Origin: an uncultured Candidatus Peribacteria bacterium
GTDB lineage: Bacteria > Patescibacteriota > Gracilibacteria > UBA1369 > UBA12473
Length of the DNA stretch: 64,000 bases
Direction of reading: 5' to 3'
Assembly (NCBI GenBank): GCA_964473745.1
Contig: CAYYQE010000008.1
Location: forward strand, 73 to 64,072
Positions 7,432-52,016 of the stretch are shown here, one piece after another (position 1 is the first letter of the stretch; the number at the start of each line of letters is the position of its first letter). A program made the translations under genes and the position numbers. The notes beneath the pieces are model-generated. The model was not told the DNA's origin and did no database searches. It saw only the letters and a list, made by a program, of their open reading frames with translations.

Positions 7432-9288
7432 TTATTCTTCTAGTTCGAACTCAGTTAATATAAGATCCAAATCAGATCCCTCGACATCTACCACTTGAAC
7501 ATCCGCAATCAGTGCTTCCCGATTCAACTCAAAATCTTTGATGCGCTTAAACATACTAATCAAATATGATTCATAAGTAGTTTGCACATTTTCGAAAACA
7601 TAAAAGCGAGCCTTAAGATCCACTTCCACTTGTTTAAGTTCAATAAATAAAAGCAGTTGCTCCTCGGCACTCATGGCATCAAATTCCTTTAAATTAAGAA
7701 AAACTAACGCTTCAGACGAATCTTTAGAAATTTCGTTTTCATCAAACTGAGCTGACATTTCAACCTGTAATTCTTCAATTTCATCATAATGATCAACTCC
7801 TAAATTATAGTAATCCTTAAGCTCTTGAATGTGCTCATCCAAGGTTTCAGCTCGATTAGTAGAAGCGTCCAAAAGTGTGTCCACATCTACAAAATAAAGA
7901 TTATAAAGACTTTCCAAATCCGCCACAAAAGTTTGAAGCCTAGAGGAATAATCAATCATATCTTCTTCGGTACCAATCAAAACACTAGAATCAACGCCGG
8001 TATCACCTTCTAAATCCATTTCTGGATTTCCTAGCAAAAGCCCGATGTAAATCGAAGGATCCACCCAAACTTGATCACTAGAATCAGCGGTCGTAGGGGT
8101 AACCTCATCAGGAGTTGCATCCGGGATTTCATCCACCGTATCATCTGACTCTACCACCTCAATCGGATCAGAATCCTCTCCGTCAAAAATCGAAAAATCA
8201 CCATTAATCAATTTTGGTGCTAAGAAAAATCCAGCCAAAATAATCGCTCCAATTAAAACTAGCACTCCGCAACAAAACTTAAGATGACGCGTAGTAAGAT
8301 TGGCTTCATGCAGTAATTGCTCCACCCGCTCGGTGAACGAGCCACTTATCGCCATTTCTTCCAAAGAACCTTCCTCTTTCGCTTCTGAAGACTCCACTAC
8401 TTCGCCTTCAACTATTTCGGGAGCTTCTGGTTCTTCTACTTCTTTTGGTTCGGGAGCTGATTCAGAAACCGGTTCGGGAGATTTTGGAGGCTCTGGAGAT
8501 TCTGGTTCTGATTTAGGGGCTATTGGTTCAGGGATCGGAGGCTCGGGCGACGCAGCTGGTTTAGCACTAGATTCGTCGGGTCCACCAAAGGGACTTTCAT
8601 AATTCCCAAAATCATCACTAGTTTTCGAAGTAGATTCCGGAGCCAAATCAAATGGCGAGGGTTCTGCGGTCACCGGCTTGGGGGCTATTGGATCTGGGGT
8701 TACTGGGTCTGGGGTAACTGGGTCTGGCGTTGGTTGTGGTGGCTCAGGCGTTGGTTGTGGTGGCTCAGGCGTTGGTTGTGGCGGTTCAGGCTTTGGTTGT
8801 GGCGATTCAGGCTGAGGACTCAAATCAAAAGGGCTAGGCGCCGCAGGCTCGGGCTTTGGAGGTTCAGGCTTTGGAGGCTCAGGCTTTGGAGGTTCAGACT
8901 TTGGAGATTCAGGCTTTGGAGGTTCAGGAGTCGGTTGCCCACCAGTTCCCGAATTATCAAAAGAAGCTGCCAAATCAAAAGGTGATGGTTCGGACGCTCC
9001 TGATGGAACAGGTGAATCACTTACCAATGAATCATCTGGCAACGGCTCGGGAGCCGGCTTATCCAAATCCTCTGCTGCTTTATCATTTGCCAAGGCTAAA
9101 TCTGGAACTGTTAAATCCGGTTTTGCATTTTTATTAACCGTTTTTGGACGACGACGCGGTCGACGACGACGTTTTTTAGGAGGTACAACCGTACTATCCT
9201 TCGGCAGAGTCGAATCTTTTTTTGAAGAAGTATCTACACTTTGCTCATTTTTTTGAGCATCGTCCTTTTTGATATTGTTGTCTGGCAT
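7432..9288 (-). CDS. Proline-rich low-complexity single-pass membrane protein
   Basis: A 618-aa ORF with a basic N-terminus (KKRRRRPRRRPK), PEPPKPE / PEPPQPT / DPVTP repeats, one TM helix (CCGVLVLIGAIILAGFFLAP) and an acidic C-terminal domain. Confidence 0.7.
   Translation of the reverse strand: MPDNNIKKDDAQKNEQSVDTSSKKDSTLPKDSTVVPPKKRRRRPRRRPKTVNKNAKPDLTVPDLALANDKAAEDLDKPAPEPLPDDSLVSDSPVPSGASEPSPFDLAASFDNSGTGGQPTPEPPKPESPKSEPPKPEPPKPEPPKPEPAAPSPFDLSPQPESPQPKPEPPQPTPEPPQPTPEPPQPTPDPVTPDPVTPDPIAPKPVTAEPSPFDLAPESTSKTSDDFGNYESPFGGPDESSAKPAASPEPPIPEPIAPKSEPESPEPPKSPEPVSESAPEPKEVEEPEAPEIVEGEVVESSEAKEEGSLEEMAISGSFTERVEQLLHEANLTTRHLKFCCGVLVLIGAIILAGFFLAPKLINGDFSIFDGEDSDPIEVVESDDTVDEIPDATPDEVTPTTADSSDQVWVDPSIYIGLLLGNPEMDLEGDTGVDSSVLIGTEEDMIDYSSRLQTFVADLESLYNLYFVDVDTLLDASTNRAETLDEHIQELKDYYNLGVDHYDEIEELQVEMSAQFDENEISKDSSEALVFLNLKEFDAMSAEEQLLLFIELKQVEVDLKARFYVFENVQTTYESYLISMFKRIKDFELNREALIADVQVVDVEGSDLDLILTEFELEE
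8681..8926. repeat. In-frame tandem repeats inside the Pro-rich gene
   Basis: There are 3 units of 15 nt (8681..8725, ggggttactgggtct-like). There are 4 units of 21 nt (8726..8809, ggcgttggttgtggtggctca). There are 5 units of 15 nt (8852..8926, ggctttggaggttca). Confidence 0.85.
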
Positions 9289-35619: not shown

Positions 35620-35647
35620 TTGACTTTTGTAGCGTTTAACGTATAAT
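35620..35647 (+). promoter_or_regulatory. Near-consensus sigma-70 promoter in front of GC-rich island 1
   Basis: TTGACT (35620..35625), a 16-nt spacer, then TATAAT (35642..35647). It is divergent from pilT. Confidence 0.6.
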
Positions 35648-35754
35648 AATCAGCCTTGGCTTCTACCTAGAAACCATCTCCCCCCGTGGAGAATGAGTGT
35701 CTGGCTGCCGCCAAGACGCTTGTTCTTTCACATTCTCATGCCCGGAGCATACCC

Positions 35755-36381
35755 ATGTCCCGTTCCCTCCTCATCACCCTCGGCCTCGCCCTTGGCCTCG
35801 CCCTTGGCCTCGTCGGTATCGCCTGGTTCAGCGTCTACAAATCGAACCGCCTCAACGAGCGCAACGATCTGCGCGCCGAGGTCGCCGAGTACCTGGTCGA
35901 AACCGAGAAGGAAGCCGTCGACAACGCGATGAAGATCTCCCTCGGTGCCCTCAACAACTTCCAAAAGGGTGAATTCTACCACCGCAAGTCGAAAGTCGGC
36001 GCCAAGACCGTCGGCCTCTTCTCCCACGACCTCGAGCCTGCTCTGACCTTCCTGGTCGACCTCGAGCGCGCCGTCCACGCAACCACCTTCTTCTTCAACT
36101 ACTCGAGCACCGAGCAGCAGGCCCTGTTCGACTGCAACGGCGGGTTCAACGGCTTCGCCGTCCCCGCCGCCCTGCAGCACAACCTGGGCCACATTCGGAG
36201 CTTCAAGTGGCAAGTCTCGGACCTCGAGCTCACCACCGAAGCCATCACCACCGCCCAGGCCGAGTGGGCCACGCTCAAGGAGACCATGGACGTCAGCCTG
36301 CAGACCGCCTCGGCCCTGGCCCTCGATGACAACCCCTGGCGCTGCGTGTGGCCGGACGAGGTGGACGAGGAGCAGCTCTGA
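35755..36381 (+). CDS. Hypothetical signal-anchored protein encoded in GC-rich island 1
   Basis: A GGAG sits 7 nt upstream of the ATG at 35755. The 208-aa product starts MSRSLLITLGLALGLALGLVGIAWF (TM helix), and third codon positions are very G/C-rich. The ORF is open back to a GTG at 35686. I see no recognisable domain. Confidence 0.6.
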   Translation: MSRSLLITLGLALGLALGLVGIAWFSVYKSNRLNERNDLRAEVAEYLVETEKEAVDNAMKISLGALNNFQKGEFYHRKSKVGAKTVGLFSHDLEPALTFLVDLERAVHATTFFFNYSSTEQQALFDCNGGFNGFAVPAALQHNLGHIRSFKWQVSDLELTTEAITTAQAEWATLKETMDVSLQTASALALDDNPWRCVWPDEVDEEQL

Positions 36382-36455
36382 TGGATCCCCGAACCCTCAT
36401 CCTCCTCCTGGGCCTCACCGCCGCCGCCCTCTACGACTACTGGCTGATCATCTAG
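36381..36455 (+). CDS. 24-aa hydrophobic micropeptide, translationally coupled
   Basis: The TGATG stop/start overlap at 36379..36383 links it to the upstream ORF. My translation is MDPRTLILLLGLTAAALYDYWLII, with a TAG at 36453..36455, and codon bias matches the upstream ORF. Confidence 0.4.
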   Translation: MDPRTLILLLGLTAAALYDYWLII

Positions 36456-36488
36456 GCCTGCGGAACTGTGAAACGACCGAGCGTACAT

Positions 36489-36512
36489 GCCTCCCTCATC
36501 CCCGAGGGAGGC
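36489..36512 (+). terminator. GC-rich hairpin closing island 1
   Basis: GCCTCCCTC-atcccc-GAGGGAGGC forms a 9-bp perfect stem. The downstream T-tract is weak (CTTCGCTTATAAAAATTT). Confidence 0.55.
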
Positions 36513-36575
36513 CTTCGCTTATAAAAATTTCAAACCCGCCTTCCCACGCGCCCCTGAAAATGATAAAAAAGAAGC

Positions 36576-37220
36576 ATGAACCAACGACAACAAGTAATTT
36601 TAGAAATTCAACAAGCCGCGCTCCAAATAATTCAAGAGCGCTATGAGGACTTCCCATATCACAACGCTACCCACACCGGTTTTGTGATCGAAACTGCCAA
36701 TCTCTTGGCCCAAGACGCCAAACTTCCACAAGATCAACTCGAACTACTTACTTTAATGGCTGCGGCCCACGATTTAGTCCAAACCCACGATCCTCTTGCT
36801 GACGGGTATCTTGGCGAAAACGAAAATGAATCCGCTGACTGGCTCGCTGAACAAATGCTTGCCTCAGGCCAATTCGAAGACGACGAAATCGAACAAGCTC
36901 GTCGCGGCATAGAAGCCACCTTCATCCTCCATCGCGAAGACGGTATCAAACAATCCGCTGAATTTGGTGATTTTTTAAGTGAACTTCTTTGTGACGCTGA
37001 TCTTGCCAACCTCGGCAGTCCCTGGGACGTCTATTTCCCCAAAACCAAAGACTATTTCCAAGAAATCAACCCCAACTCAACCGAAGAAGAATGGAAGCAC
37101 TATTTACGTCTTCAAGTCCCAATCCTCCTCCAACACCACTACTACACCACCGTCGCCCAAGAACGATTCCCTCATTTACGTGAAAATGCCACAAAAATAG
37201 AAGACTCCTTAAAAGCCTAA
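36576..37220 (+). CDS. HD-domain phosphohydrolase-like protein
   Basis: A 214-aa ORF with H...HD spacing (YHNATHTGFV ... AAAHDLVQTHD). Confidence 0.55.
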   Translation: MNQRQQVILEIQQAALQIIQERYEDFPYHNATHTGFVIETANLLAQDAKLPQDQLELLTLMAAAHDLVQTHDPLADGYLGENENESADWLAEQMLASGQFEDDEIEQARRGIEATFILHREDGIKQSAEFGDFLSELLCDADLANLGSPWDVYFPKTKDYFQEINPNSTEEEWKHYLRLQVPILLQHHYYTTVAQERFPHLRENATKIEDSLKA

Positions 37221-38149
37221 TCCAGCTCCAAAACCTCTGGCAACCAATTACAATAATTGCCTTCTTTTTTTAATTCTTCCCTAATTTTGCGCATTTCTTT
37301 GCGCCACATCCCTTCAGAATAATTTTCATTCAAAATCATAAACTTCCCGTGATTCACTCCTACACACCCAAACATATGATGCGAATTAAAAACCCGCACA
37401 CAAAATTCCGCATCACGCGTATTCCCACACTGCCAACAAAAATTACAGTTATACAAATCATATCCCATCACACATTCATACAACAACTCGCCAGTCATAC
37501 ATTCGGTATCATAAATATCCTTACTTTTATCCACAATATGATAAGAATTTGCCGCGTCCTCGACATCATTCATGGAATAACAATTCAAACAATTCTTGGA
37601 ATTATAAATATGATCTCCGGTGCAATTTTCGGAATGAAGCTGAACCGACGCAATATGGGGAATTTTTTCACGCAGTGCTCCCACTTTTTCCAAAACTTCT
37701 TGCTGTTTTGCCGGAGTATCGGCCCGAAGCTCAGCTATTTTTTGCAAATACTCTTCTTTGGAATAAGGGGCATTAAAAATATGAAAACTTTTTTGCCTAA
37801 GCCCCACACACCCAAAACAATCATTACAACTTTTGCAATCATAACAAAACTGCAAATCGCGTGACCCCACACATTCCTCGCAAAAATCACAGTTATAACA
37901 CCGCTCACAAAACTCACATTCATAACAAAGTTCACACTTCATGCAGTGATACGTATCGCAACAATCTTTAAGCGTATTTGGATAGTAACAATAATAAGAA
38001 TCCTCACATTTATACCCAACAAAACACATGTAGGAATCCTTGGAAAAAGACAAACAATGCACGTAATCGCAGTTCTTGTTTGTTACCGAACGCAACGCAT
38101 ATGTTGGCTGGGATTCCAGTAGTTTTTTGAATTTTTCCAAAAAGCTCAT
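37217..38149 (-). CDS. Cysteine-ladder repeat protein, paralog A (uncharacterised)
   Basis: A 310-aa protein with about 32 Cys. It contains a CxxC ladder (CMKCELCYECEFCERCYNCDFCEEC) and an internal duplication whose halves end in CNDCFGCVGLRQKSFHIFNAPYSKEEY and HHMFGCVGVNHGKFMILNENYSEGMW. Confidence 0.7.
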   Translation of the reverse strand: MSFLEKFKKLLESQPTYALRSVTNKNCDYVHCLSFSKDSYMCFVGYKCEDSYYCYYPNTLKDCCDTYHCMKCELCYECEFCERCYNCDFCEECVGSRDLQFCYDCKSCNDCFGCVGLRQKSFHIFNAPYSKEEYLQKIAELRADTPAKQQEVLEKVGALREKIPHIASVQLHSENCTGDHIYNSKNCLNCYSMNDVEDAANSYHIVDKSKDIYDTECMTGELLYECVMGYDLYNCNFCWQCGNTRDAEFCVRVFNSHHMFGCVGVNHGKFMILNENYSEGMWRKEMRKIREELKKEGNYCNWLPEVLELD

Positions 38150-38164
38150 GAGCAGATTATAACA

Positions 38165-38446
38165 CTACCCCAGATGCTTCCAAAAACATTCCTGACAATA
38201 AACAATATATTTAGATTCCGGAGAATAAGTCGAAATAATATCGTTTTGGCACTTATCACATTTTCGTTTATATAATTTACGCTCATTCCGAAGAGAAAGT
38301 CGCCTTTTTTGACGACAATCCGGACAATTTTCTGGAAACGGCAGGTCTTTTTTCTTATAAAACTTCTGTTCCTGCTCAATTATCAAAAAATCCTTTGAGC
38401 AAGCCTTACATTTTGCAACCTTATTTTCAGTAGTAGTTTCTGTCAT
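38165..38446 (-). CDS. Stand-alone double zinc-ribbon protein
   Basis: A 93-aa protein with four CxxC pairs (CKAC...CPDC...CDKC...CQEC). It is homologous to both termini of the 533-aa fusion protein. Confidence 0.7.
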   Translation of the reverse strand: MTETTTENKVAKCKACSKDFLIIEQEQKFYKKKDLPFPENCPDCRQKRRLSLRNERKLYKRKCDKCQNDIISTYSPESKYIVYCQECFWKHLG

Positions 38447-38466
38447 GATTAGAAGGGTTAAATTAT

Positions 38467-39411
38467 TTAAGAAAGTTCAGGGACAGCCAATTCTGGATAG
38501 GTCGTTGGCAAATGTTTACCATATTCACCACTAGCTCTCATCTCAGCCTTAATCTCTGCTACTTTGCGGTGCCAATCCTCCTTGGAATACTGCTTATTAA
38601 AGATGCAATATTCTGCTCGATTCATCGTAAAACACCCAAACATATGATGCGAATTGTAAACATTTTCACAATACTCCAAATCATAAGAATCGAAAACCCC
38701 GTAACAATAGTTACAATTCGTAATATTCATGGCTGACATGATTTCGTAATTAAGCTCCGACTTATAATAATTATTTGAACAATCTAGAGAATCGGTAATT
38801 TCCTCACAATTATTCAAATAAGAACAATCCTGAAGTTTCTTAACATCAAAACAGTAATAACAATTCTTACAATTATAAATATAATCACCAAAAGATTTCT
38901 CGTTTTGATCGCCTCGAAGCATTAATCGCGGCATCTTCTTTTTAAGCTCCTTCACCTGCTGATCAATCTCTTCTCGCGATATTTGCTTTAATTCAGCTAA
39001 TTTAGATTCATACTCCTTCTTTGTGAATTTCTCATTAAAAATGTGATATTCCTTGCGCCGCAAACCCACACATCCAAAACAATCATTACACCCAACCATG
39101 TCAAAACAGTGCCGTAAACTTCGTGAACTTTTACAATCCTGACACCCTTCACATTCATAACATTCATGACAGTCTACACAGTCGTAACAAAGTCGACAAT
39201 AAAAGCAATAATCACAATCCGTGCAGTCCTCAGAGTTATATAAAAAGTATCCATAATAACAATCTTCGTCATATTCACTCCCCACTAACAAATAACAATT
39301 TTTAGTGTTCCCACTGTAATTTACAAATTCGCTGTTTTCGCAATTTACATAGAGTAAACCGACTCGCGGATGCTTATTTCTAAGCTCAATCATTTGATGA
39401 ATGTAGGACAT
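38467..39411 (-). CDS. Cysteine-ladder repeat protein, paralog B (uncharacterised)
   Basis: A 314-aa protein with the same architecture and signatures as paralog A (CNDCFGCVGLRRKEYHIFNEKFTKKEY; HHMFGCFTMNRAEYCIFNKQYSKEDW). Confidence 0.7.
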   Translation of the reverse strand: MSYIHQMIELRNKHPRVGLLYVNCENSEFVNYSGNTKNCYLLVGSEYDEDCYYGYFLYNSEDCTDCDYCFYCRLCYDCVDCHECYECEGCQDCKSSRSLRHCFDMVGCNDCFGCVGLRRKEYHIFNEKFTKKEYESKLAELKQISREEIDQQVKELKKKMPRLMLRGDQNEKSFGDYIYNCKNCYYCFDVKKLQDCSYLNNCEEITDSLDCSNNYYKSELNYEIMSAMNITNCNYCYGVFDSYDLEYCENVYNSHHMFGCFTMNRAEYCIFNKQYSKEDWHRKVAEIKAEMRASGEYGKHLPTTYPELAVPELS

Positions 39412-41584: not shown

Positions 41585-43186
41585 ATGAATACCTGCACCC
41601 AATGTCAAAATACGTTCGAAATTTCTGAAAAAAATCAGACTTTTTACGAACAAATCGCAGTCCCGCCACCAAAAAAATGCCCGGACTGTCGTTTAGTACG
41701 CCGTTTTATCGAACGCAATCCCAAAACTCTATACTATAGACTTTGCGATTTCACCAAAAACAATACTCTTTCTCAATTTCACGCTGATCAACCTTTTCCA
41801 GTTTACAGTCCAGAATCTTGGTGGAGCGAGAATTGGGACATCTTAAAATATGGTCAGGATTTTGACTTTGATCGCCCTTTTTTCGAACAATTTTTGGAAC
41901 TCAAAAACCGAACTCCACACCTCGCGCTCTTTAACACTGGTGGCACTATCCAAAACAGTGATTTCAACAACTGCACCGCTTATTTAAAAGACTGCTACTT
42001 AATTGCGGAAAGCGACTACTGTGAAGCCTGTTATTACTCAAATTTATTAAAAAATTGCCAATCCGTCGTGGACTGCTCAGTCTGCTACAAAGACGAACTT
42101 TGCTACGAATGTATCGACTGCACTAATTGTTATGCCTTACTCTATTCCCAAGACTGCCAAACCTGTAAAGATAGCTATTTTCTCCAAAACTGTACCTCCT
42201 GCTCTGATTGTATTGGCTGTATCAACCAACGCCAGCAGCAGTACCTAATTTTCAATAAAAAATACTCAAAAGAAGAATACGAAAAATTTAAAAACCAATT
42301 TGCTCTAAACACAAAAGAAGGAGTCGCTAAACTTGCACAAACCTGCACGGAATTCTTTTTAACCCAACCGAGAAAAAACCTCATCGCCGAACATAATGAA
42401 GGAAGCTCCGGAGATCATCTTTTCAACTCCAAAAACGCGCACCACTGTTTTGACAGCATTGATTTAGAAGATTGCTCCTACTGCGCCAAACTAACTCTGG
42501 GCGTCAAAACCTCTATGGATTACAATTCCTGGGGAAACAAATGCGAACTCATGTATCAGTGCACTTCCTGCGGGGATCACTGCTATAACTTAAAATTCTG
42601 CGCCAACTGCCAAAGTGACATGAATAATTGTGAATACTGCGTCGAATGTTTTGGCTGCTCCGACTGCTTTGGCTGCGCTAATCTAAAAAAAGAAAGCTTT
42701 TGCATCTTTAATAAAAAATACTCCGAAAAAGACTATCACGAGCTAAAAAATCGCATCATTGCCCATATGAAAAAAACGGGTGAATATGGCGAATTTTTTC
42801 CAATCGAAATTTGTCCGTACGGGTACAACGAAACCATGGCCATGGACGCTTTTCCCCTCACCAAAGAACAAGCTCTTGAACAAGGATTCAAATGGTATGA
42901 CCCCCCTGAACCAAAATCATCCAGCAATACGAACGCCGCCCTTTGCGATTGCGGCAAAAACTTTAAAATCATCAACCAAGAAGTAGTTTTTTACAAAAAA
43001 CTAAACATCCCCACTCCTGATAAATGCCCCCTCTGCCGTCACAAAACCCGCATAGCCAAACGTAGGCCACTTAAATTATGGGACCGTAAGTGCACCAAAT
43101 GCAACGCCGCCATTAAATCTAATTACGCCCCCGAACGTCCCGAAATAATCTACTGCGAAAAATGTTATTTAAAGGAGGTCTATTAA
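41585..43186 (+). CDS. Fusion protein: zinc-ribbon + duplicated cysteine-ladder domain + double zinc-ribbon (paralog C)
   Basis: A 533-aa protein. The N-terminus (CTQCQNTFEISEKNQTFYEQ...CPDCRLVRR) and C-terminus (CDCGKNFKIINQEVVFYKK...CPLCRHKTR...CTKC...YCEKCY) both match the 93-aa protein. The middle matches paralogs A and B. Confidence 0.75.
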   Translation: MNTCTQCQNTFEISEKNQTFYEQIAVPPPKKCPDCRLVRRFIERNPKTLYYRLCDFTKNNTLSQFHADQPFPVYSPESWWSENWDILKYGQDFDFDRPFFEQFLELKNRTPHLALFNTGGTIQNSDFNNCTAYLKDCYLIAESDYCEACYYSNLLKNCQSVVDCSVCYKDELCYECIDCTNCYALLYSQDCQTCKDSYFLQNCTSCSDCIGCINQRQQQYLIFNKKYSKEEYEKFKNQFALNTKEGVAKLAQTCTEFFLTQPRKNLIAEHNEGSSGDHLFNSKNAHHCFDSIDLEDCSYCAKLTLGVKTSMDYNSWGNKCELMYQCTSCGDHCYNLKFCANCQSDMNNCEYCVECFGCSDCFGCANLKKESFCIFNKKYSEKDYHELKNRIIAHMKKTGEYGEFFPIEICPYGYNETMAMDAFPLTKEQALEQGFKWYDPPEPKSSSNTNAALCDCGKNFKIINQEVVFYKKLNIPTPDKCPLCRHKTRIAKRRPLKLWDRKCTKCNAAIKSNYAPERPEIIYCEKCYLKEVY

Positions 43187-43569
43187 ACCCTCCCCACAAA
43201 CATTCCCAATTCCTTAAACAACGGCACCCACGTCTCATATTTTTTGGAAAGGAGAATTTTGTAGGTTTTGGGTTCATTGCTGCGCACGACCAACACATTT
43301 TTGTTCAAACCATATTTCCCCTGCGCCACATACTCGATATCTTTAAGTGGCAGGTTAAAAACAAATGGATTCGGATGCCACGGCTTACCTGTTATCATCC
43401 CCCACACCTTGCGTGGCCATTCATAAAAAATTGTTAGCCAGTGCACGGTCGTAACTTTCAAAACTAGGCGCTGATTTGTTAAGTACAGCCGATAACTCAT
43501 GTTCATATTAAATTTCATATAACGAACATAATCGTCGACCAATAATTTTTCGTTTGGATGAAGTTGCAT
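43183..43569 (-). CDS. Hypothetical 128-aa protein (bacterial PH-domain-like?)
   Basis: An ORF with host-like composition. The pattern RLYLTNQRLVLK ... LPLKDIEYV is reminiscent of bPH/GRAM-like folds. This is a weak call. Confidence 0.4.
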   Translation of the reverse strand: MQLHPNEKLLVDDYVRYMKFNMNMSYRLYLTNQRLVLKVTTVHWLTIFYEWPRKVWGMITGKPWHPNPFVFNLPLKDIEYVAQGKYGLNKNVLVVRSNEPKTYKILLSKKYETWVPLFKELGMFVGRV

Positions 43570-43588
43570 GTGAATATTTTAGCACAGC

Positions 43589-43616
43589 TTGACTCATCCT
43601 CAACTTGCCCTACACT
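43589..43616 (+). promoter_or_regulatory. Sigma-70-type promoter in front of GC-rich island 2
   Basis: TTGACT (43589..43594), a 16-nt spacer, then TACACT (43611..43616). Confidence 0.45.
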
Positions 43617-43706
43617 TAAGCCACCTAATCTCGTGATTTCGCTCCACCCCAACCTGAGAGCGGACTCCAGAAAGGTCCCGTTCTTACACAAATTGGAGGT
43701 CCTCTC

Positions 43707-44066
43707 ATGGACTGGAAGAAGTTGGCCATCTGGGCCTTCAAGTTTCTCTATGCCGGAGGTATCGGCCTGTTCGCTGGCGGTTTGACATGGATTGTCACTG
43801 CCAACGCACTCTGCGGAGGGATCGTGCTGATCATGGCGTTCTTGACCAAGAAGTACGCCCTGAATAACCTGATCTCCGAACTCTCGCTGAAGCATCTCCT
43901 GATCGCAGAAATCGGTTGCCCCATCGTGGTGGGACTGGAGATGATCCTGGTCGTGGGCGCCTACAAGCTGCTTGGCTGGGAATTCGTCCTTGTCGTATCC
44001 ACGATTCTGGCCTTCTCTGGCTTGGCTGTAGACAGAAAGATCAACCCCTCGATCGCCAGCCAGTGA
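43707..44066 (+). CDS. Hypothetical 119-aa four-helix membrane protein in GC-rich island 2
   Basis: A strong RBS (GGAGG) lies 7 nt upstream of the ATG. There are about four hydrophobic helices and G/C-biased codon third positions. Confidence 0.6.
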   Translation: MDWKKLAIWAFKFLYAGGIGLFAGGLTWIVTANALCGGIVLIMAFLTKKYALNNLISELSLKHLLIAEIGCPIVVGLEMILVVGAYKLLGWEFVLVVSTILAFSGLAVDRKINPSIASQ

Positions 44067-44090
44067 CCTCGGTGCAAGAACGGGCAAAAA

Positions 44091-44112
44091 CCCCCGCTGA
44101 AACATGCGGGGG
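44091..44112. terminator. GC-rich hairpin after the 119-aa ORF
   Basis: CCCCCGC-tgaaacat-GCGGGGG is preceded by AAAAA, so the T-tract is better on the minus strand. It may act bidirectionally. Confidence 0.5.
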
Positions 44113-44134
44113 TCTTGCCAAACAACAATTAATA

Positions 44135-44222
44135 TTTGTGCCCGGGCACAAACTCTAACCTGCAAATCTGTGCGTACGCACAGATTCACGTGCACTAAGG
44201 CGGCGTGATTGCTCACGCCGCC
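44135..44222. repeat. Array of three further perfect palindromes/hairpins
   Basis: The three are TTTGTGCCCGGGCACAAA (44135..44152), AATCTGTGCGTACGCACAGATT (44165..44186) and GGCGGCGTG-attgct-CACGCCGCC (44199..44222). CACGTGCAC lies between the last two. Confidence 0.8.
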
Positions 44223-44231
44223 AGGGCCTGT

Positions 44232-44363
44232 CTATTCATCTTCTTCTTCGCAAGCCATAACAGCTGCTGCGATTCCGACGATAACGCCCGCTGCAACACT
44301 GATCCAGTTGGCAACCAGAGCTCCCACAAGGAGCCCGACACCCACCGCTCGTACGTACTTCAT
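44232..44363 (-). CDS. 43-aa glycine-zipper-like hydrophobic peptide with acidic tail
   Basis: This ORF is not in the supplied track. My minus-strand translation is MKYVRAVGVGLLVGALVANWISVAAGVIVGIAAAVMACEEEDE. An AGGAG lies 8 nt upstream of the ATG at 44363, and the stop is at 44232..44234. Confidence 0.45.
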   Translation of the reverse strand: MKYVRAVGVGLLVGALVANWISVAAGVIVGIAAAVMACEEEDE

Positions 44364-44379
44364 CCGAAGACTCCTATTG

Positions 44380-44419
44380 GGTTAGCGACCTAACAACTTA
44401 AATTACCAGATCGCTAACC
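44380..44419 (-). promoter_or_regulatory. Inverted repeat in the leader of the 43-aa ORF
   Basis: GGTTAGCGA (44380..44388) and TCGCTAACC (44411..44419) are separated by 22 nt, just upstream of the RBS. This could be an operator or a 5'-UTR hairpin. Confidence 0.45.
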
Positions 44420-44540
44420 TAATATTAGACAGGACTTTTTTCAGACAAATTGCGCTAAATCTAGACAATTCATCAATCAAAAAAGCAACTAATTAAAGCA
44501 AGGATAAATTAATTTGTAAAGGATTTCCTAATCACGGATT

Positions 44541-44580
44541 TATAAAAGGCCCGAAACCGCAACGCGATCCCGGGCCCTTC
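44541..44580 (-). terminator. Intrinsic terminator downstream of groEL
   Basis: On the minus strand the GGCCCG/CGGGCC stem (44548..44553 with 44571..44576) is followed by TTTTATAAA. Confidence 0.5.
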
Positions 44581-44595
44581 AAATTTCTCACATTC

Positions 44596-46269
<1,674 letters not shown>

Positions 46270-47489: not shown

Positions 47490-50400
47490 CTAAACAAGTT
47501 CCTCAACCGCCAACAACAATTTATCTTTAAGTTCAGGGTGTTTTCTAAGAATTTTCAAAATTCTTACTTCTATCTGGCGAATACGTTCCCTGCTTAATCC
47601 CCATCTACCCCCAATTTCGACAAGTGTTAAAACACTCTGTTTATCATTAAATCCAAACCGATTAACAAACACATCCCAAAATCTTTCTATATCTTTTGCT
47701 CCCACCTCATCCTCAATAATAACTCTTATTTCTTCAAGCAACATGCTCCGTTGCTCTCTTTGTTCAACTTCAACAAAACCATCATCAACCTCGCCCATTA
47801 AATCACCCCGACGGTTAGCATTTGCATCTTCGTCATTCATTGGAGCATCTAACTGGACCTCTCCACTAGCAGCGATACTAGCAAGATCTATAAGATCTTT
47901 TACTTCTTCAATTGGCATATCCAACATTTCCGCAAGATCTTCTGGGGTTGCCTGTCGATGGTTAGTCCTCAAAAACATACCTCGTGCTCTGTTTAATTTC
48001 TTAATATCTTGTTGAAGATGAATTGGAATTCGAACTGCACGATGGTGATTTTCGATATATCTAATTATAAATTGTCGAATCCACTGATTAGCATAAGTTG
48101 AAAGTCTAATCCCCCGATGAGGGTCAAACTTTTGAACCGCCCTTATAAGTCCCATATTTCCTTCTTGAATAAGATCAGGGAAAGGTAAATTAGTCCAGGT
48201 ATATTTCTTAGCAATCCAAACAACAAGACGCAAATTTCTGGTTATTAATTCATTGAGAGCCTCTTGATCACCAGCTTCCTTTCTGACACCTAACTCGTGC
48301 TCTTCTTCTCTAGTTAAAATGCTCGTAGCAGGCCCTAATTGAATAACACTTTGTTCACCCAAAATTAAACCCTGTGGCTCGCGCCGAGGCTTCACCTTTG
48401 GCTTTGGCTCAGGCTCCTCAACTTCAGCTAATAAATTTGTTGCTTTTTCATATAATTGGAAAGCATATTTATCAGTCAAAAAATCAGCTATCTCGGGTAG
48501 CAAAAGTCTACGATTAGGCAAAACCTCTGCTTCGACTATTAAAGACTGTAACTCTCCTCCAAGTAATTTTTCCTTAACTACCTCTAACACCCTTTCACTA
48601 ATAATTTGACTATAAGAAATACGGGCAATGACATGCAACACTCTTAATAAAACCTGGATAAGCATATCTCGTTGCCTAGGTCTTACTGATCTTTCTTCTA
48701 AAATTGCGTTAAATTCAGCTACATAAGTCTGAATTTGCTGCAAAGAAAACAAACTATAACGAACAACCAATTGTGGATTCGCTTCAGCCTCTTTTCTTAA
48801 TTGTCCGTCACCAGTTAAAAACTCAAACTTTTTCCACATTGTCGCTTCTGTCGTACGATGAGCAACCCATCCCTCAACGTGATCCCAACGCATCCCAAAA
48901 GCATCTCGCAATTTCTGACCCGCATGCTGATTAGCTAACTTTTGTTCTATCCGCCGAGGTGCATATTGACGGCAATGCCTAGCAGGCTTATCTAAATAAT
49001 CTTCGTAATCTCGAGGTTCAGGATAAGTCTTACCACAAGTGTCCGCCTCTAATTCAATAGCACTTAAAAAGAAAGCATTCTCACGCAATTCTGCTAAATT
49101 AACGGCACTTCTAGTTAGTTTTTCAGTCCACAAAGACGAACAACCCAGATTACTTAAAAACGCTCTCTTTAACCTCTGCGCTGGAGTTAAATTAGTAGGA
49201 TCTAAAAGTTCTTCTATGTCATCTATCTCTTCCAATTTTCCATAAAGCATTCCCGAAGTAACTTCCACCTGCCCCGCCTCCAAATAAGCAATTCTTTTTA
49301 AAACTCCCCTTGCTCGGGCGCGTGACCCACAACAAGCTTCCATATCAGCATATCCTAATCGATGAAATCTTAAACTCTCCCTAACTTGCCTCTTTAAATC
49401 ACACGAAGTATACAAAAACTTTAAGACTTCTTTAAGCTGCCTATTAACACTTCCTCGCCCCAGAGTCCCAGCTGATTCTAAAACAGTAGTTATTCTTTGT
49501 TGCTGAGCAGATGTTGCTTCCTCTAAAAGCGCCACATGTGCAACTCCTCGATAAGCAGTAGACCCTAACTGTTCATTTAACCGGACCGCTAAATTTTGAC
49601 CACTCAACCAAAACTCTTCCTCTGGCGTTAATTCGCGACGTTTTTGCTGCCGCCCTAAACGAGCCGCTAATTCTTCCCGAATTTTAATCGGCAAACTAAA
49701 AGCATTCATTAAATTAAATTGCACTGATGTAACACCATAACCTAACAATCGAAATACTCGACAATAATCAGCTAAAACATCTGGCTCACGATTTTCTAAA
49801 GACTCTGGCACAATTCCTGTTTCAAAACCAAACACCTCCCCCAATTCAACTAATCTCTTTTCTTGTGTTAATTTTCTCCAAGCCCTTTCCACGCCTCGAT
49901 CTCTTTGCTTTTGAGAAGCGTTAATCCAAGCCCATTGCCCTTCAAAAGAAACACCACGCGCTTCAATTTCCTGAATAATTTCTAAAGTTCGAGCTGTTCT
50001 ATATATATAGCCTGGCGGATCCTTCAACCCACGCTCTTCTGAAAACCTAGTAAACGCTGCTTCGTCCTCCGCCCTAACCTCTTCGGCCTTAACCTCCGCA
50101 GCCGATGGGCCAGGTGTCATTTTTGTTCTAATAACTTCCAAACTACTATCTAAAAGAGCCGGTTGTATTTTCCCAAAATGCTCTAACATAAACTCCGCTT
50201 TAGCAAGAACTGTAGAAGGACGAAGCCTTCTAATAGCCCTCTGTAAAGACCCAATTGGACAACCCAACTCTGCCAATCTCTCTCTGGCGGCTTGTTCTGC
50301 TGGAGCTATTGAAGCACTAAAACGAGGCATCTCCACAGGCAATGAAGGTGTTGGCGTTAGATCAGGTTCATTTTCAGCTAACACTTCTAACTGAGTTTGA

Positions 50401-52016
50401 ATTCGCTGATGACTCTTTCCTTTTATTTTTAGTGCTCGCGCCGCCCGTCGCAGATCTTTCCAACTATTTACATGCAAAAAATGAACGTAAAGTTCCCGTG
50501 GAGCACCTTCCTTTTCAAAAATAACAATTCTTTCTTCAATTCTTTTTACACTCGTTTGATTTGCCGCAAACAGTATTTGTCGCATATAAGTTGGTATATC
50601 TTCATTTTTAGCAAAAAACGCTACCTTATTCCGTAAACGCTGGAAAGACGCACTATCAGGGCCTCCCACAAAATGTGTCTGCTTCGGAGCAATAGTAATT
50701 CCATCTCGCAAAGTATGCTGAAGAGTTTCTCTTAAATATCTAGCTGAAAAAGCTTTACCAGGAGGGAAAGGATGCCCCAAAGCATTCTGTTCCACATAGG
50801 CTACTAATTCCGGTCGAGGCATATCATCAAAGTCCTCCGGAACTGCTGCTAATCTAAATATCGGCGGTGCCTTTTCCATATGCTCAATTGTTTTGCGCCT
50901 CACAAAAACTCGCCTCAAATTTGCACGAATGTGTTTTTTTGAATGATCTGTAATCTTTTCTAGCCGCTCTCTTGTTATCCAAATATCATAAATCTGTATT
51001 CCATATTCACTAAAATATTCTGTTTCTAAAAGCAAATGCTGCCAAACAAACACATAAGTATATCTCCCAGCAGAATCTTCAACTGGAATCGGAGTTGTAG
51101 TTCGTTGAATAGCATTATATAAATCTGCCTCTATTATCTGACGAACTCCATTTAAAACCGCTTCCCAATCATCCCCCTCACAATCAACCTCCTCGCTAGT
51201 CGGCACCCGCTTCAATTCCAAAGATTTCTGCAAAGCCTGGTGGACAACTTCTTCAGAAGGGGCCACACATTCCCCCTCCCGATCAGTGTGCGTTAAAACA
51301 GTACTTTTGATAACAATTTCTACCGCTCTCCCAAGCCCACCAAAAGCTCTTACAAATCTTCCATTATGATAACGGCATTCACTTTGCTGCGGGAGTGAGG
51401 TCCCAGTTTGATAAGTCCGATTATCAGCTGGAAGATCATTTTTTTCATTATAAGCTCGCCATAATTCCTCGGCTAGAGCTTTTCGCAAGGGCTCCTCTTC
51501 TGTCTCAGCAACTATAAATCTAAATCTCATTTGATGAACAACTTCATGATAACTATGTCCAATTCCTTCTAATAAATGTCTCAATTGTGCCGCTTCACGT
51601 CGAGCCCCATACTCTGGATGTTCGGCCAAAAAATCATCCAAAGTCCCAGGATGAAACACCGTACGGCCTTCTGCTTGCCGCGCTTCCCAATGACGACACT
51701 GAAAATGATATAACGCTAACAAAAATTGCAATTGGGCTTTAATCGCTTCAGCATACCTTTCCATTGCGATCGCTTCCTGTTCCTGCACTGGCTCAGGTGA
51801 AACCAAAGCCGCTTCCTTTATTTCATGAAGAGGTCCATCCCAAGCTCCTAAAATCATCTCCAAACTATCTGGCGTAGCATCAACTGCTAATTGATCTCGC
51901 GTAGCCAACATTACTGAAGGCAACGGGCTAGAAGCATCCACTATTTCAGAAGCAGCAGCTTTCTCTATAATTGTTTGCGCCGGAAAAACCCAAGAAGCCT
52001 CAAGACGATCATTCAT
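47490..52016 (-). CDS. Giant sigma-70 family protein: roughly 1233-aa unknown N-terminal extension + RpoD-like regions 1.2-4
   Basis: The C-terminal 275 aa (nt 47490..48317) carry LTREEEHELG...NLRLVVWIAKKY (1.2/2.1), DLIQEGNMGLIRAVQKFDPHRGIRLSTYANQWIRQ (2.2-2.4), region 3, and LSRERIRQIEVRILKILR (4.2). The preceding 1233 aa have no motif I recognise. Confidence 0.85.
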   Translation of the reverse strand: MNDRLEASWVFPAQTIIEKAAASEIVDASSPLPSVMLATRDQLAVDATPDSLEMILGAWDGPLHEIKEAALVSPEPVQEQEAIAMERYAEAIKAQLQFLLALYHFQCRHWEARQAEGRTVFHPGTLDDFLAEHPEYGARREAAQLRHLLEGIGHSYHEVVHQMRFRFIVAETEEEPLRKALAEELWRAYNEKNDLPADNRTYQTGTSLPQQSECRYHNGRFVRAFGGLGRAVEIVIKSTVLTHTDREGECVAPSEEVVHQALQKSLELKRVPTSEEVDCEGDDWEAVLNGVRQIIEADLYNAIQRTTTPIPVEDSAGRYTYVFVWQHLLLETEYFSEYGIQIYDIWITRERLEKITDHSKKHIRANLRRVFVRRKTIEHMEKAPPIFRLAAVPEDFDDMPRPELVAYVEQNALGHPFPPGKAFSARYLRETLQHTLRDGITIAPKQTHFVGGPDSASFQRLRNKVAFFAKNEDIPTYMRQILFAANQTSVKRIEERIVIFEKEGAPRELYVHFLHVNSWKDLRRAARALKIKGKSHQRIQTQLEVLAENEPDLTPTPSLPVEMPRFSASIAPAEQAARERLAELGCPIGSLQRAIRRLRPSTVLAKAEFMLEHFGKIQPALLDSSLEVIRTKMTPGPSAAEVKAEEVRAEDEAAFTRFSEERGLKDPPGYIYRTARTLEIIQEIEARGVSFEGQWAWINASQKQRDRGVERAWRKLTQEKRLVELGEVFGFETGIVPESLENREPDVLADYCRVFRLLGYGVTSVQFNLMNAFSLPIKIREELAARLGRQQKRRELTPEEEFWLSGQNLAVRLNEQLGSTAYRGVAHVALLEEATSAQQQRITTVLESAGTLGRGSVNRQLKEVLKFLYTSCDLKRQVRESLRFHRLGYADMEACCGSRARARGVLKRIAYLEAGQVEVTSGMLYGKLEEIDDIEELLDPTNLTPAQRLKRAFLSNLGCSSLWTEKLTRSAVNLAELRENAFFLSAIELEADTCGKTYPEPRDYEDYLDKPARHCRQYAPRRIEQKLANQHAGQKLRDAFGMRWDHVEGWVAHRTTEATMWKKFEFLTGDGQLRKEAEANPQLVVRYSLFSLQQIQTYVAEFNAILEERSVRPRQRDMLIQVLLRVLHVIARISYSQIISERVLEVVKEKLLGGELQSLIVEAEVLPNRRLLLPEIADFLTDKYAFQLYEKATNLLAEVEEPEPKPKVKPRREPQGLILGEQSVIQLGPATSILTREEEHELGVRKEAGDQEALNELITRNLRLVVWIAKKYTWTNLPFPDLIQEGNMGLIRAVQKFDPHRGIRLSTYANQWIRQFIIRYIENHHRAVRIPIHLQQDIKKLNRARGMFLRTNHRQATPEDLAEMLDMPIEEVKDLIDLASIAASGEVQLDAPMNDEDANANRRGDLMGEVDDGFVEVEQREQRSMLLEEIRVIIEDEVGAKDIERFWDVFVNRFGFNDKQSVLTLVEIGGRWGLSRERIRQIEVRILKILRKHPELKDKLLLAVEELV

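Follow-up and report, generated by a model that had tools for sequence, protein, structure and literature searches.

Two convergent small-gene units in a GC-rich segment beside groESL of an uncultured Candidatus Peribacteria bacterium

The locus between the PH-like gene and groESL

We analysed a 64,000-nucleotide (nt) stretch of DNA, here called the window, from an uncultured Candidatus Peribacteria bacterium (contig CAYYQE010000008.1, assembly GCA_964473745.1; also JGI contig Ga0118720_1000493). Our subject is a GC-rich segment of it, termed island 2, which lies between a gene for a PH-like protein and groESL and contains two small convergent open reading frames (ORFs) of 119 and 43 amino acids (aa). 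The GC content of island 2 is 0.52–0.575 in 200-nt intervals across 43600–44399, as against 0.36–0.44 in its flanks and 0.42 in the window overall, in agreement with a preliminary description of this DNA that had noted an abrupt segment of roughly 55% GC by eye. That description also reported the convergent arrangement of two ORFs with small hydrophobic products, a promoter TTGACT-N16-TACACT, the ribosome-binding sites GGAGG and AGGAG, an array of hairpins between the genes and a structured leader before the 43-aa ORF. All of these are present; each ribosome-binding site stands 7 nt before its ATG, and the array comprises four hairpins. The features discussed below are listed here, with SD denoting a Shine–Dalgarno sequence, UTR an untranslated region and L018 a contig of a sister Peribacteria species (identical to the GTDB Peribacteria contig L019).

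43577–44118, plus strand: unit A, comprising promoter, leader, 119-aa ORF and hairpin 1
43577–43606, both strands: 30-nt promoter block common to two divergent promoters; left limit of homology to L018
43589–43616, plus strand: sigma-70-type promoter TTGACT-N16-TACACT (TTGACT-N16-TACAAT in L018)
43617–43706, plus strand: 5′ leader of about 85–90 nt, with an imperfect hairpin at 43623–43676
43677–43689, plus strand: 5′ arm CCCGTTCTTACAC, 13 nt, 92% complementary to 44072–44084; both arms identical in L018
43693–43741, plus strand: initiation-region hairpin, in which UUGGAGGUCC (with the SD GGAGG at 43695–43699) pairs with GGGCCUUCAA (codons 9–12)
43707–44066, plus strand: 119-aa ORF, encoding an orphan predicted integral membrane protein; orthologue P0002 in L018
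44067–44084, plus strand: fold-back element of the 3′UTR, immediately downstream of the stop codon: anti-SD CCUC, then GGUGCAAGAACGGG; conserved in L018
44087–44116, both strands: hairpin 1, which terminates the 119-aa gene and closes the conserved part of unit A
44119–44430, minus strand: unit B, comprising hairpins 2–4, the 43-aa ORF and a 5′ stem-loop; this species only
44134–44153, minus strand: hairpin 2, a terminator-like site in the promoter and terminator scan
44165–44186, minus strand: hairpin 3, in the 3′UTR of the minus-strand (43-aa) transcript
44199–44222, minus strand: hairpin 4, in the 3′UTR of the same transcript
44232–44363, minus strand: 43-aa ORF MKYVRAVGVGLLVGALVANWISVAAGVIVGIAAAVMACEEEDE, a putative single-pass peptide with small-xxx-small motifs and an acidic tail
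44364–44448, minus strand: 5′ region of the 43-aa ORF, with the SD AGGAG (44375–44371) and an 18-bp stem-loop at 44424–44375 (z = −5.6)

An abrupt shift in GC at both edges could also mean that island 2 is an assembly chimera, or contaminant DNA joined into an AT-rich contig, and several short contigs do stop inside it, at 44024, 43727 and 44133. GC and junctions were examined for chimerism, and the segment is not an artefact. Seven contigs carry the 119-aa protein, two its A7V variant and 19 the 43-aa peptide; they belong to JGI, ENA and Logan assemblies, which cover different samples and three assembly pipelines, and those that we fetched are identical across 43000–44700 save for single-nucleotide polymorphisms (SNPs) at 43422, 43607 and 43726. 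Some 20 independent contigs cross both junctions with 100% identical sequence, which excludes chimerism. An orthologous GC-rich cassette lies at the syntenic site in another species, and the contig end at 43727 adjoins the genuine SNP at 43726. We regard a chimeric origin as next to impossible. An exact look-up of GroES returned only the same species with the same island, and no empty site.

Short contigs from independent assemblies end recurrently at 44024 (three), 43347 (two) and 43727 (one), with further ends in or near the island at 44133, 44226 and 44486. These recurrent ends probably reflect strain polymorphism that breaks assembly graphs, and a structural variant may lie behind them.

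Island 2 comprises two separable units

The L018 locus is syntenic with that in the window: groES/groEL, RNase Y and an LTD protein stand on one side, T2SSE and Cys-rich paralogues on the other, and the neighbouring proteins are 82–96% identical between the two species. At island 2, DNA homology covers only 43577–44117, starting at the −35 box and including all of hairpin 1, and its limit at 44117–44118 falls between hairpins 1 and 2. The position of unit B is occupied in L018 by an AT-rich, native-type gene of 157 aa with a GC content at third codon positions (GC3) of 0.30; the 119-aa cassette there adjoins groEL without any 43-aa gene, and tblastn finds no match to the 43-aa peptide in L018. 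Because L018 keeps the 119-aa cassette alone and the homology boundary runs between the two genes, they are not an obligate pair. The region had at first been taken as one GC-rich module; it divides into two units, and a single functional module is not supported. Judged from the comparison, unit A is an old acquisition that predates the split from the sister species, and unit B is a later addition found in this species only.

These results bear on whether the two genes encode one protein pair, such as a holin and antiholin, a lysis cassette, or a bacteriocin with its immunity protein. Both products are small and membrane-embedded, both genes lie within one compositionally odd segment, and the 43-aa peptide has a very weak PHROG holin match (E = 0.36). 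We nevertheless consider such a pair very improbable. Besides the solitary 119-aa gene of L018 and the homology boundary, the genes converge and are not co-transcribed; the surroundings contain no endolysin, spanin, ABC exporter or phage gene and no double-glycine leader; and there is no significant match to holin, bacteriocin or immunity families, nor any in phage, viral or plasmid collections. Pfam detects no holin, the neighbours being the PH-like gene and groESL, and for a bacteriocin the 43-aa ORF has neither a double-glycine nor a Sec leader and no exporter near it. The likening of the two genes to a single toxin–antitoxin (TA), holin–antiholin or bacteriocin–immunity module in the preliminary description is thus not supported, given the 119-aa gene standing alone in L018 and the want of family matches.

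The left limit of homology is formed by the 30-nt promoter block. Its plus strand holds the −35 element of the 119-aa gene, and on its minus strand lies the promoter of the PH-like gene, TTGAGG-N16-TAAAAT, of leaderless type, with its end 7 nt from the ATG. The block occurs twice in L018 (8977–9006 and 9868–9898), bracketing a GC-rich lipoprotein cassette of about 890 bp. This cassette (L018:8977–9898) occupies the precise junction of the PH-like promoter with the 119-aa cassette as an insertion, and its flanks are two diverged copies of the block, TTTTARC..CTTGACT..CAACTT. It has a GC content of 0.65–0.68 and a GC3 of 0.91. A TTGACA-N17-TAATAT promoter and a 110-nt leader precede its 200-aa lipoprotein-like ORF, which has a GAGG SD and is followed by a terminator. 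The arrangement suggests that the site is a hotspot that gains such cassettes by a duplicative or site-specific process. At unit B, TAATATT stands at both edges (44130–44136 and 44420–44426), the right copy doubling as a −10-like box; the pair may mark a short target-site duplication, or may have arisen by chance in AT-rich sequence.

The 119-aa gene encodes a predicted membrane protein

Among 5.8 billion clusters, P0002 of L018 (124 aa, 65–69% identity) is the one further relative of the 119-aa protein. An exhaustive hidden Markov model search of 1.84 billion representatives found no relative beyond the same cluster, and a scan of genome contigs found only the L018 organism; two scans of metagenome contigs, a collection that seems to lack these samples, gave no match, and did not return the source contig itself either. 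The indels between the orthologues, of 15, 3 and 3 nt, are all in frame. The ratio of nonsynonymous to synonymous divergence (dN/dS) is 0.32, compared with 0.05–0.10 for the neighbouring genes, and the dS of 0.66 lies within the neighbours' range of 0.44–1.7, indicating that the cassette diverged together with the genome. These substitution patterns show that the 119-aa ORF genuinely codes for protein and evolves under purifying selection. A 233-aa minus-strand ORF that overlies it (43515–44216) and is annotated by some gene callers, for example in contigs L009–L011, was rejected as an antisense artefact of the GC-rich frame; it is not conserved, since its L018 equivalent has 7–12 stops in every minus frame.

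The protein has two hydrophobic blocks of 41–45 residues each (residues 6–46 and 64–108) and clusters of Lys and Arg at the N terminus, in the central loop and at the C terminus, the central loop being the variable, indel-bearing part. This pattern fits a predicted topology of four transmembrane (TM) helices with both termini inside. Hydropathy likewise predicts four TM segments here and a single pass for the 43-aa peptide, matching the four helices first described. The motif GLEMILVVGAYK, with an intramembrane Glu78, is invariant between the orthologues.

Sequence searches of Pfam, PHROGs, NCBIfam, PADLOC and PDB gave no family, structure or defence match for the 119-aa product (in Pfam and NCBIfam none even at E ≤ 1). 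As the 43-aa product has no significant match in these collections either, the earlier statement that no family is recognisable stands. With SMR/EmrE, LrgA/CidA and Fluc/CrcB the 119-aa protein shares a size of about 110–125 aa, four predicted TM segments and a conserved intramembrane acidic residue. It differs from them in that its Glu lies in TM3 and not TM1, in having no Pfam or NCBIfam match, and in that the riboswitches accompanying those families were not found with Rfam. An internal 2+2 TM duplication was also looked for, and no such repeat was found.

A possible translational gate in the 119-aa mRNA

The leader of the 119-aa gene aligns with that of L018 with 82 matches, 7 mismatches and 5 gap columns, and all 38 aligned bases of its core (43655–43692) are identical. 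For comparison, identity is about 71% at third codon positions in the gene body and 47% in the DNA upstream of the −35 box. Third positions are identical in 20 of the first 20 codons, against 53 of 75 in the remainder (p ~ 0.001). In this two-species alignment, the leader and first 20 codons are shown to be constrained at the nucleotide level.

Two predicted pairings involve this region. The first is the initiation-region hairpin, in which AUGG is also predicted to pair with CCAU (codons 7–8). The consensus fold, which comprises the leader hairpin at 43623–43676 and this one, contains no broken pair and three one-sided changes that preserve wobble pairing, and the strain SNP at 43726 (C>T, A7V) turns a G–C pair into G–U. 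The second joins the two ends of the mRNA: CCUC-GGUGCAAGAACGGG is complementary to CCCGUUCUUACAC...GGAGG of the leader, and this pairing is part of the minimum free energy (MFE) structure of the full mRNA. Between 5′UTR and 3′UTR, the RNAduplex energy is lower than in shuffles, with p = 0.010 for the window copy and 0.000 for L018, and the cognate 5′UTR/3′UTR pairs are the most stable in the cross-matrix. Island 1, a further GC-rich segment described below, has complementarity of this kind (p = 0.007 and 0.023), as has the L018 lipoprotein cassette (p = 0.040; helices of 9 and 10–11 bp); there is none in the 43-aa unit (p = 0.86) or in the groESL control (p = 0.97).

Type I toxin mRNAs combine SD/anti-SD pairing, a long-distance 5′–3′ interaction and a terminal stem-loop (PMC8594479, PMC5416894, PMC6733600). 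From the same combination in the 119-aa mRNA we infer a transcript that would keep translation off by default. The SD and AUG would be buried in the local hairpin with codons 7–12; alternatively or additionally, the 3′UTR segment after the stop codon (CCUC plus GUGCAAGAACGGG) may fold back onto the SD-proximal leader, as in hok and AapA1. The membrane protein would then be made only on a trigger, which could be processing, a trans-acting RNA or protein, or temperature. Such gating would suggest that the 119-aa protein is harmful or costly if freely made. We consider the translational gate, as modelled from these folds, a plausible hypothesis.

Two related ideas were not borne out. A role of high GC3 in global mRNA stability was rejected, the MFE beating synonymous-codon shuffles in the window copy only (z = −2.3) and an AT-rich control doing likewise, and a leader motif GTTCTTNCAC common to islands 1 and 2 aligned no better than shuffles (p = 0.13–0.24). 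Rfam gave no match at the gathering score, and noise only at E ≤ 10.

In icaR of Staphylococcus aureus, 3′UTR–5′UTR pairing blocks the SD in an ordinary mRNA. The 119-aa mRNA resembles it in having a 3′UTR motif with an anti-SD (CCUC) complementary to its own ribosome-binding region, and differs in that its interaction is a predicted one and that gene class and organism are unrelated.

Foreign-type composition and initiation signals

GC3 is 0.77 in the 119-aa ORF and 0.81 in its L018 orthologue, as against 0.38 ± 0.09 in the host, which places the window copy 4 s.d. above the host mean; its GC excess is a genuine anomaly of codon usage. C occupies 0.44–0.47 of third positions in the unit A gene and 0.09–0.16 in host genes. 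In the 43-aa ORF (GC1 0.73, GC3 0.50), the GC excess is mostly due to first-position G of Gly, Ala and Val codons.

The initiation signals also set these genes apart from their surroundings. Within the window, only 2 of the 34 host ORFs scored for the motif (250 aa or longer) are preceded by an SD-like 4-mer. Inspection by eye of the sequence upstream of the 41 ORFs of 200 aa or longer likewise showed few SDs. Several host genes carry a TATAAT/TACAAT box about 7 nt before the ATG (for example 37217–38149(−), 41585(+), 43569(−) and 44596–46251(−)), suggesting leaderless mRNAs. These signals suggest that leaderless or SD-independent initiation may be widespread in this Peribacteria genome. A GGAG-type SD at 7–8 nt is found at the 119-aa gene and its orthologue, at island 1 in both species, at the L018 cassette and at the 43-aa ORF. 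Codon usage, together with an SD in an almost SD-less genome, makes unit A look foreign in type.

Island 1 (35629–36592; L018:3200–4040) has a GC content of 0.60 and a GC3 of 0.91, a TTGACT-N16-TATAAT promoter, a conserved leader of about 95 nt and a GGAG SD. It holds a 208-aa ORF with an N-terminal TM segment or signal anchor and a 24-aa ORF that overlaps at ATGA, and has a terminator hairpin. The L018 copy is syntenic; protein identity to it is only 55%, yet its GC3 is 0.90.

Of the known kinds of locus, an acquired ORFan islet fits island 2 best. Its composition and codon usage deviate as expected of a genomic islet; as to signs of mobility, unit B is absent from L018 and unit A syntenic there, no tRNA or integrase lies nearby, and L018 has a 30-nt direct repeat at the site. 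Like ORFan islets, it combines an abrupt deviation in GC and codon usage with its own promoter, SD and terminator and with homologues in a narrow lineage only, it evolves faster than its neighbours, and the content of the locus differs between sister species. Foreign DNA is usually AT-rich relative to its host, and island 2 differs in being the GC-richer of the two. It also differs in having no integrase, tRNA or insertion sequence nearby, and in that unit A is old, syntenic and without amelioration (GC3 about 0.8 in both species). GC-rich Peribacteria exist, Ca. P. riflensis having 58.5% GC (PMC4736985).

The minus-strand unit

The 171-nt spacer between the two genes folds at −76.2 kcal/mol, compared with −49.8 ± 3.8 kcal/mol for dinucleotide shuffles (z = −7.0; 0 of 200 as good). 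Hairpin 1 has the same stem in L018 (CCCCCGC/GCGGGGG), preceded by CTACGG instead of CAAAAA. The A5 before the stem, found in this species only, provides a U5 tail on the minus strand and so makes hairpin 1 a bidirectional terminator. Hairpins 2–4 have perfect stems of 8–11 bp, are absent from L018 and have tails that are more U-rich on the minus strand; the four hairpins read better as minus-strand terminators. A REP/BIME-like repeat family was ruled out, each hairpin being unique in the 64 kb. An integron gene cassette was likewise rejected: the units have their own promoters, the hairpins are mutually unrelated, and there is no integrase in the gene lists.

The groESL terminator hairpin, at 44545–44579, lies upstream of the 43-aa unit, and the best candidate for a promoter of the unit is a weak promoter-like sequence TTGTCT-N15-TAATAT (44448–44422, minus strand). 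The predicted transcript would run from about 44424 to 44082, some 340 nt, in the order stem-loop, AGGAG-N7-ATG, ORF and hairpins 4, 3, 2 and 1, and would end at hairpin 1, converted to a bidirectional terminator. With this terminator shared, the convergent transcripts would overlap by about 30–40 nt, which allows, without requiring, antisense cross-talk. On this account unit B would be transcribed from the minus strand into a highly structured RNA, and its probable product would be a single-pass peptide of 43 aa.

From its signals we think it probable that the 43-aa ORF is translated. Its ATG with AGGAG at 7 nt matches five other cassette ORFs in a genome in which SDs are rare, and only 114 of 20,000 shuffles of the segment (0.6%) yield an ATG ORF that has a 5-nt SD and 40 codons or more. 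The 5′ stem-loop and hairpin 4 leave just the space that the ORF fills, its product is a textbook single-pass peptide with Lys/Arg at the N terminus, and Rfam has no family match.

The alternative, that the ORF is untranslated, we hold to be less probable but worth serious consideration. Unit B would then be a structured non-coding RNA, or a stack of terminators that shields groEL against antisense transcription originating at the 119-aa gene, or the plus strand would be the coding one, through a 62-aa GTG ORF at 44205–44393. The length of the ORF says little, since all four frames are open in this segment. A homologue search with the peptide returned only itself, the region is identical in all contigs and so offers no polymorphism, and no canonical minus-strand promoter was found in a scan with a spacer rule of 16–18 nt. 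The GC3 of 0.50 compares with 0.77–0.91 in the other cassettes, and the in-register plus frame has GC1/2/3 values of 0.52/0.48/0.69, similar to those of the 119-aa gene. Over its full 367 nt, the minus-strand RNA has an unusual degree of structure (z = −6.3). The plus-strand version is countered by the position of its ORF, which begins with GTG inside hairpin 4 and ends within the 5′ stem-loop.

Relation to type I toxin–antitoxin systems

Type I toxins are 20–60 aa long and are encoded on mRNAs of 150–400 nt (PMC8594479). The antitoxin is taken here as an antisense RNA of 60–200 nt that has its own promoter and pairs with the toxin mRNA. By size, the 43-aa ORF lies within the toxin range and the 119-aa ORF outside it. 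In mRNA form, the 43-aa unit fits (about 340 nt between predicted ends, a 5′ stem-loop and four 3′ hairpins), and the 119-aa mRNA measures about 500 nt. Elements that sequester the SD are predicted for the 119-aa mRNA and were not found for the 43-aa mRNA, and the promoter scan revealed no dedicated antisense-RNA promoter on the strand opposite either ORF beyond the genes' own signals. Membership in type I TA systems is not established for either unit. The likeness to such systems drawn in the preliminary description survives in part: SD sequestration and 5′–3′ fold-back are predicted, but in the mRNA of the 119-aa protein and not in that of the 43-aa peptide.

The 119-aa mRNA shares with hok/sok and with AapA1/IsoA1 of Helicobacter pylori a predicted anti-SD/SD hairpin, a terminal stem-loop, a membrane product and a 3′ element complementary to the SD-proximal 5′UTR. 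It differs from both in encoding 119 aa with about four TM segments instead of a 20–60-aa peptide, in the length of the mRNA, in that no antisense antitoxin RNA is evident in either species, and in having no sequence relationship to them.

Unit B itself might be a type I TA-like system, in which the 43-aa peptide is the toxin and a 3′-overlapping convergent RNA the antitoxin, as in TxpA/RatA, BsrG/SR4 and Fst/RNAII. We consider this unlikely. The 119-aa mRNA would have to supply the antitoxin through its 3′ end or through read-through, or else a small RNA that escaped detection would do so; the hairpins lack U-tracts on the plus strand, so read-through antisense transcription is conceivable. 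Peptide and transcript lengths are inside the type I ranges (PMC8594479), and the single hydrophobic helix, strong 5′ stem-loop, stacked 3′ stem-loops and convergent units with a common bidirectional terminator all resemble those systems. Set against this, no plus-strand antisense promoter was found inside 44119–44363, the 43-aa mRNA shows neither SD sequestration nor 5′–3′ complementarity, and the sole Rfam antitoxin match, ohsC, is noise, with 20 bits (E = 3) where the gathering score is 50. The peptide has no homologue in type I families or elsewhere, and its tail is acidic. In type I toxin peptides the tail is usually basic or polar. Nor did the 119-aa gene evolve as an antitoxin, because it is present without the 43-aa gene in L018.

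The three systems named thus resemble the locus in a hydrophobic ORF (here of 43 aa) with a convergent partner, a shared bidirectional terminator and a structured 5′ end. They differ from it in that the partner here is a protein-coding mRNA that stands alone in the sister species, that the 43-aa mRNA lacks an antisense promoter, SD occlusion and a 5′–3′ interaction, and that there is no homology.

Weighing the interpretation

Taken as a whole, we put at about even the chance that island 2 represents two juxtaposed, independent, monocistronic cassettes of foreign type in a variable spot, of which unit A carries a translational gate. Apart from the points already set out against translation of the 43-aa ORF, several observations weigh against this account. 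No helix is backed by double compensatory changes, for which only two species are available. The leader hairpin has z-scores of −1.8 and −2.6, and local hairpins are modest overall (−1.5 to −2.7). The longest uninterrupted 5′–3′ helix is only 9 bp (p = 0.06–0.12), and global mRNA stability is not consistently above that of synonymous-codon shuffles. For the protein, AlphaFold2 on a 3-sequence alignment gave a pLDDT of 50 and a pTM of 0.27, and the model is unusable.

The foreign origin is also open to another interpretation. Viral scans and BLAST gave no donor match in phage, plasmid or viral collections, so 'foreign' refers here to composition and signals. GC3 is equally high in both species after a dS of about 0.66, and equal GC3 after such divergence may reflect selection rather than recent transfer.

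Other features of the window

A homologue search with the PH-like protein returned only itself. An ORF with a sigma-70 domain (47490–52016, minus strand) encodes 1508 aa here and is called as separate genes of 671 and 800 aa in the same-species contigs L009, L011 and L020 from other samples; the adjoining gene encodes 249 aa here and 228 aa in those three. The split is either strain-level structural variation or a frameshift.

A paralogous cluster at 37217–39411 and 41585–43186 is made up of Cys-rich CxxC-repeat proteins (310, 314 and 533 aa) and a treble-clef zinc-ribbon protein of 93 aa; it is conserved in L018 and has weak zf_Tbcl Pfam matches only. At 8403–9060 (minus strand), a stretch with a GC content of 0.53 lies within a 618-aa ORF and contains tandem repeats of about 21–24 nt (GGCGTTGGTTGTGGTGGCTCA... 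on the plus strand). This stretch encodes a low-complexity repeat protein and is no island like islands 1 and 2.

Discussion

A wider possibility is that the 119-aa gene, island 1 and the L018 lipoprotein cassette form a distinct, maintained class of genes in SD-less, AT-rich Peribacteria. Such cassettes would be GC3-rich, with C-ending codons, an SD and a fold-back that acts as a translational gate, and would encode small secreted or membrane proteins that evolve fast although their non-host codon usage is kept in both species; the foreign 'dialect' would then be functional. We regard this reading as decidedly doubtful. If it were true, harmful surface or membrane effectors, perhaps for episymbiotic host-cell contact, would be made under special conditions only, and the mRNA logic of type I toxins would extend to larger multi-pass proteins.

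Bacteria of the candidate phyla radiation are uncultured and most of their lineage-specific genes are opaque, and this locus offers a concrete, testable case. It shows an SD-less, AT-rich, streamlined genome retaining genes of foreign type for membrane or secreted proteins over speciation time-scales. It also suggests that fold-back control of the sort described for the mRNAs of tiny type I toxins may serve a larger, multi-pass membrane protein. If the gating is not real, island 2 would be a pair of orphan acquired genes, and the toxin–antitoxin label should not be propagated. If it is real, the 119-aa family and its sister cassettes would be candidate conditional effectors or toxins of a host-dependent bacterium.

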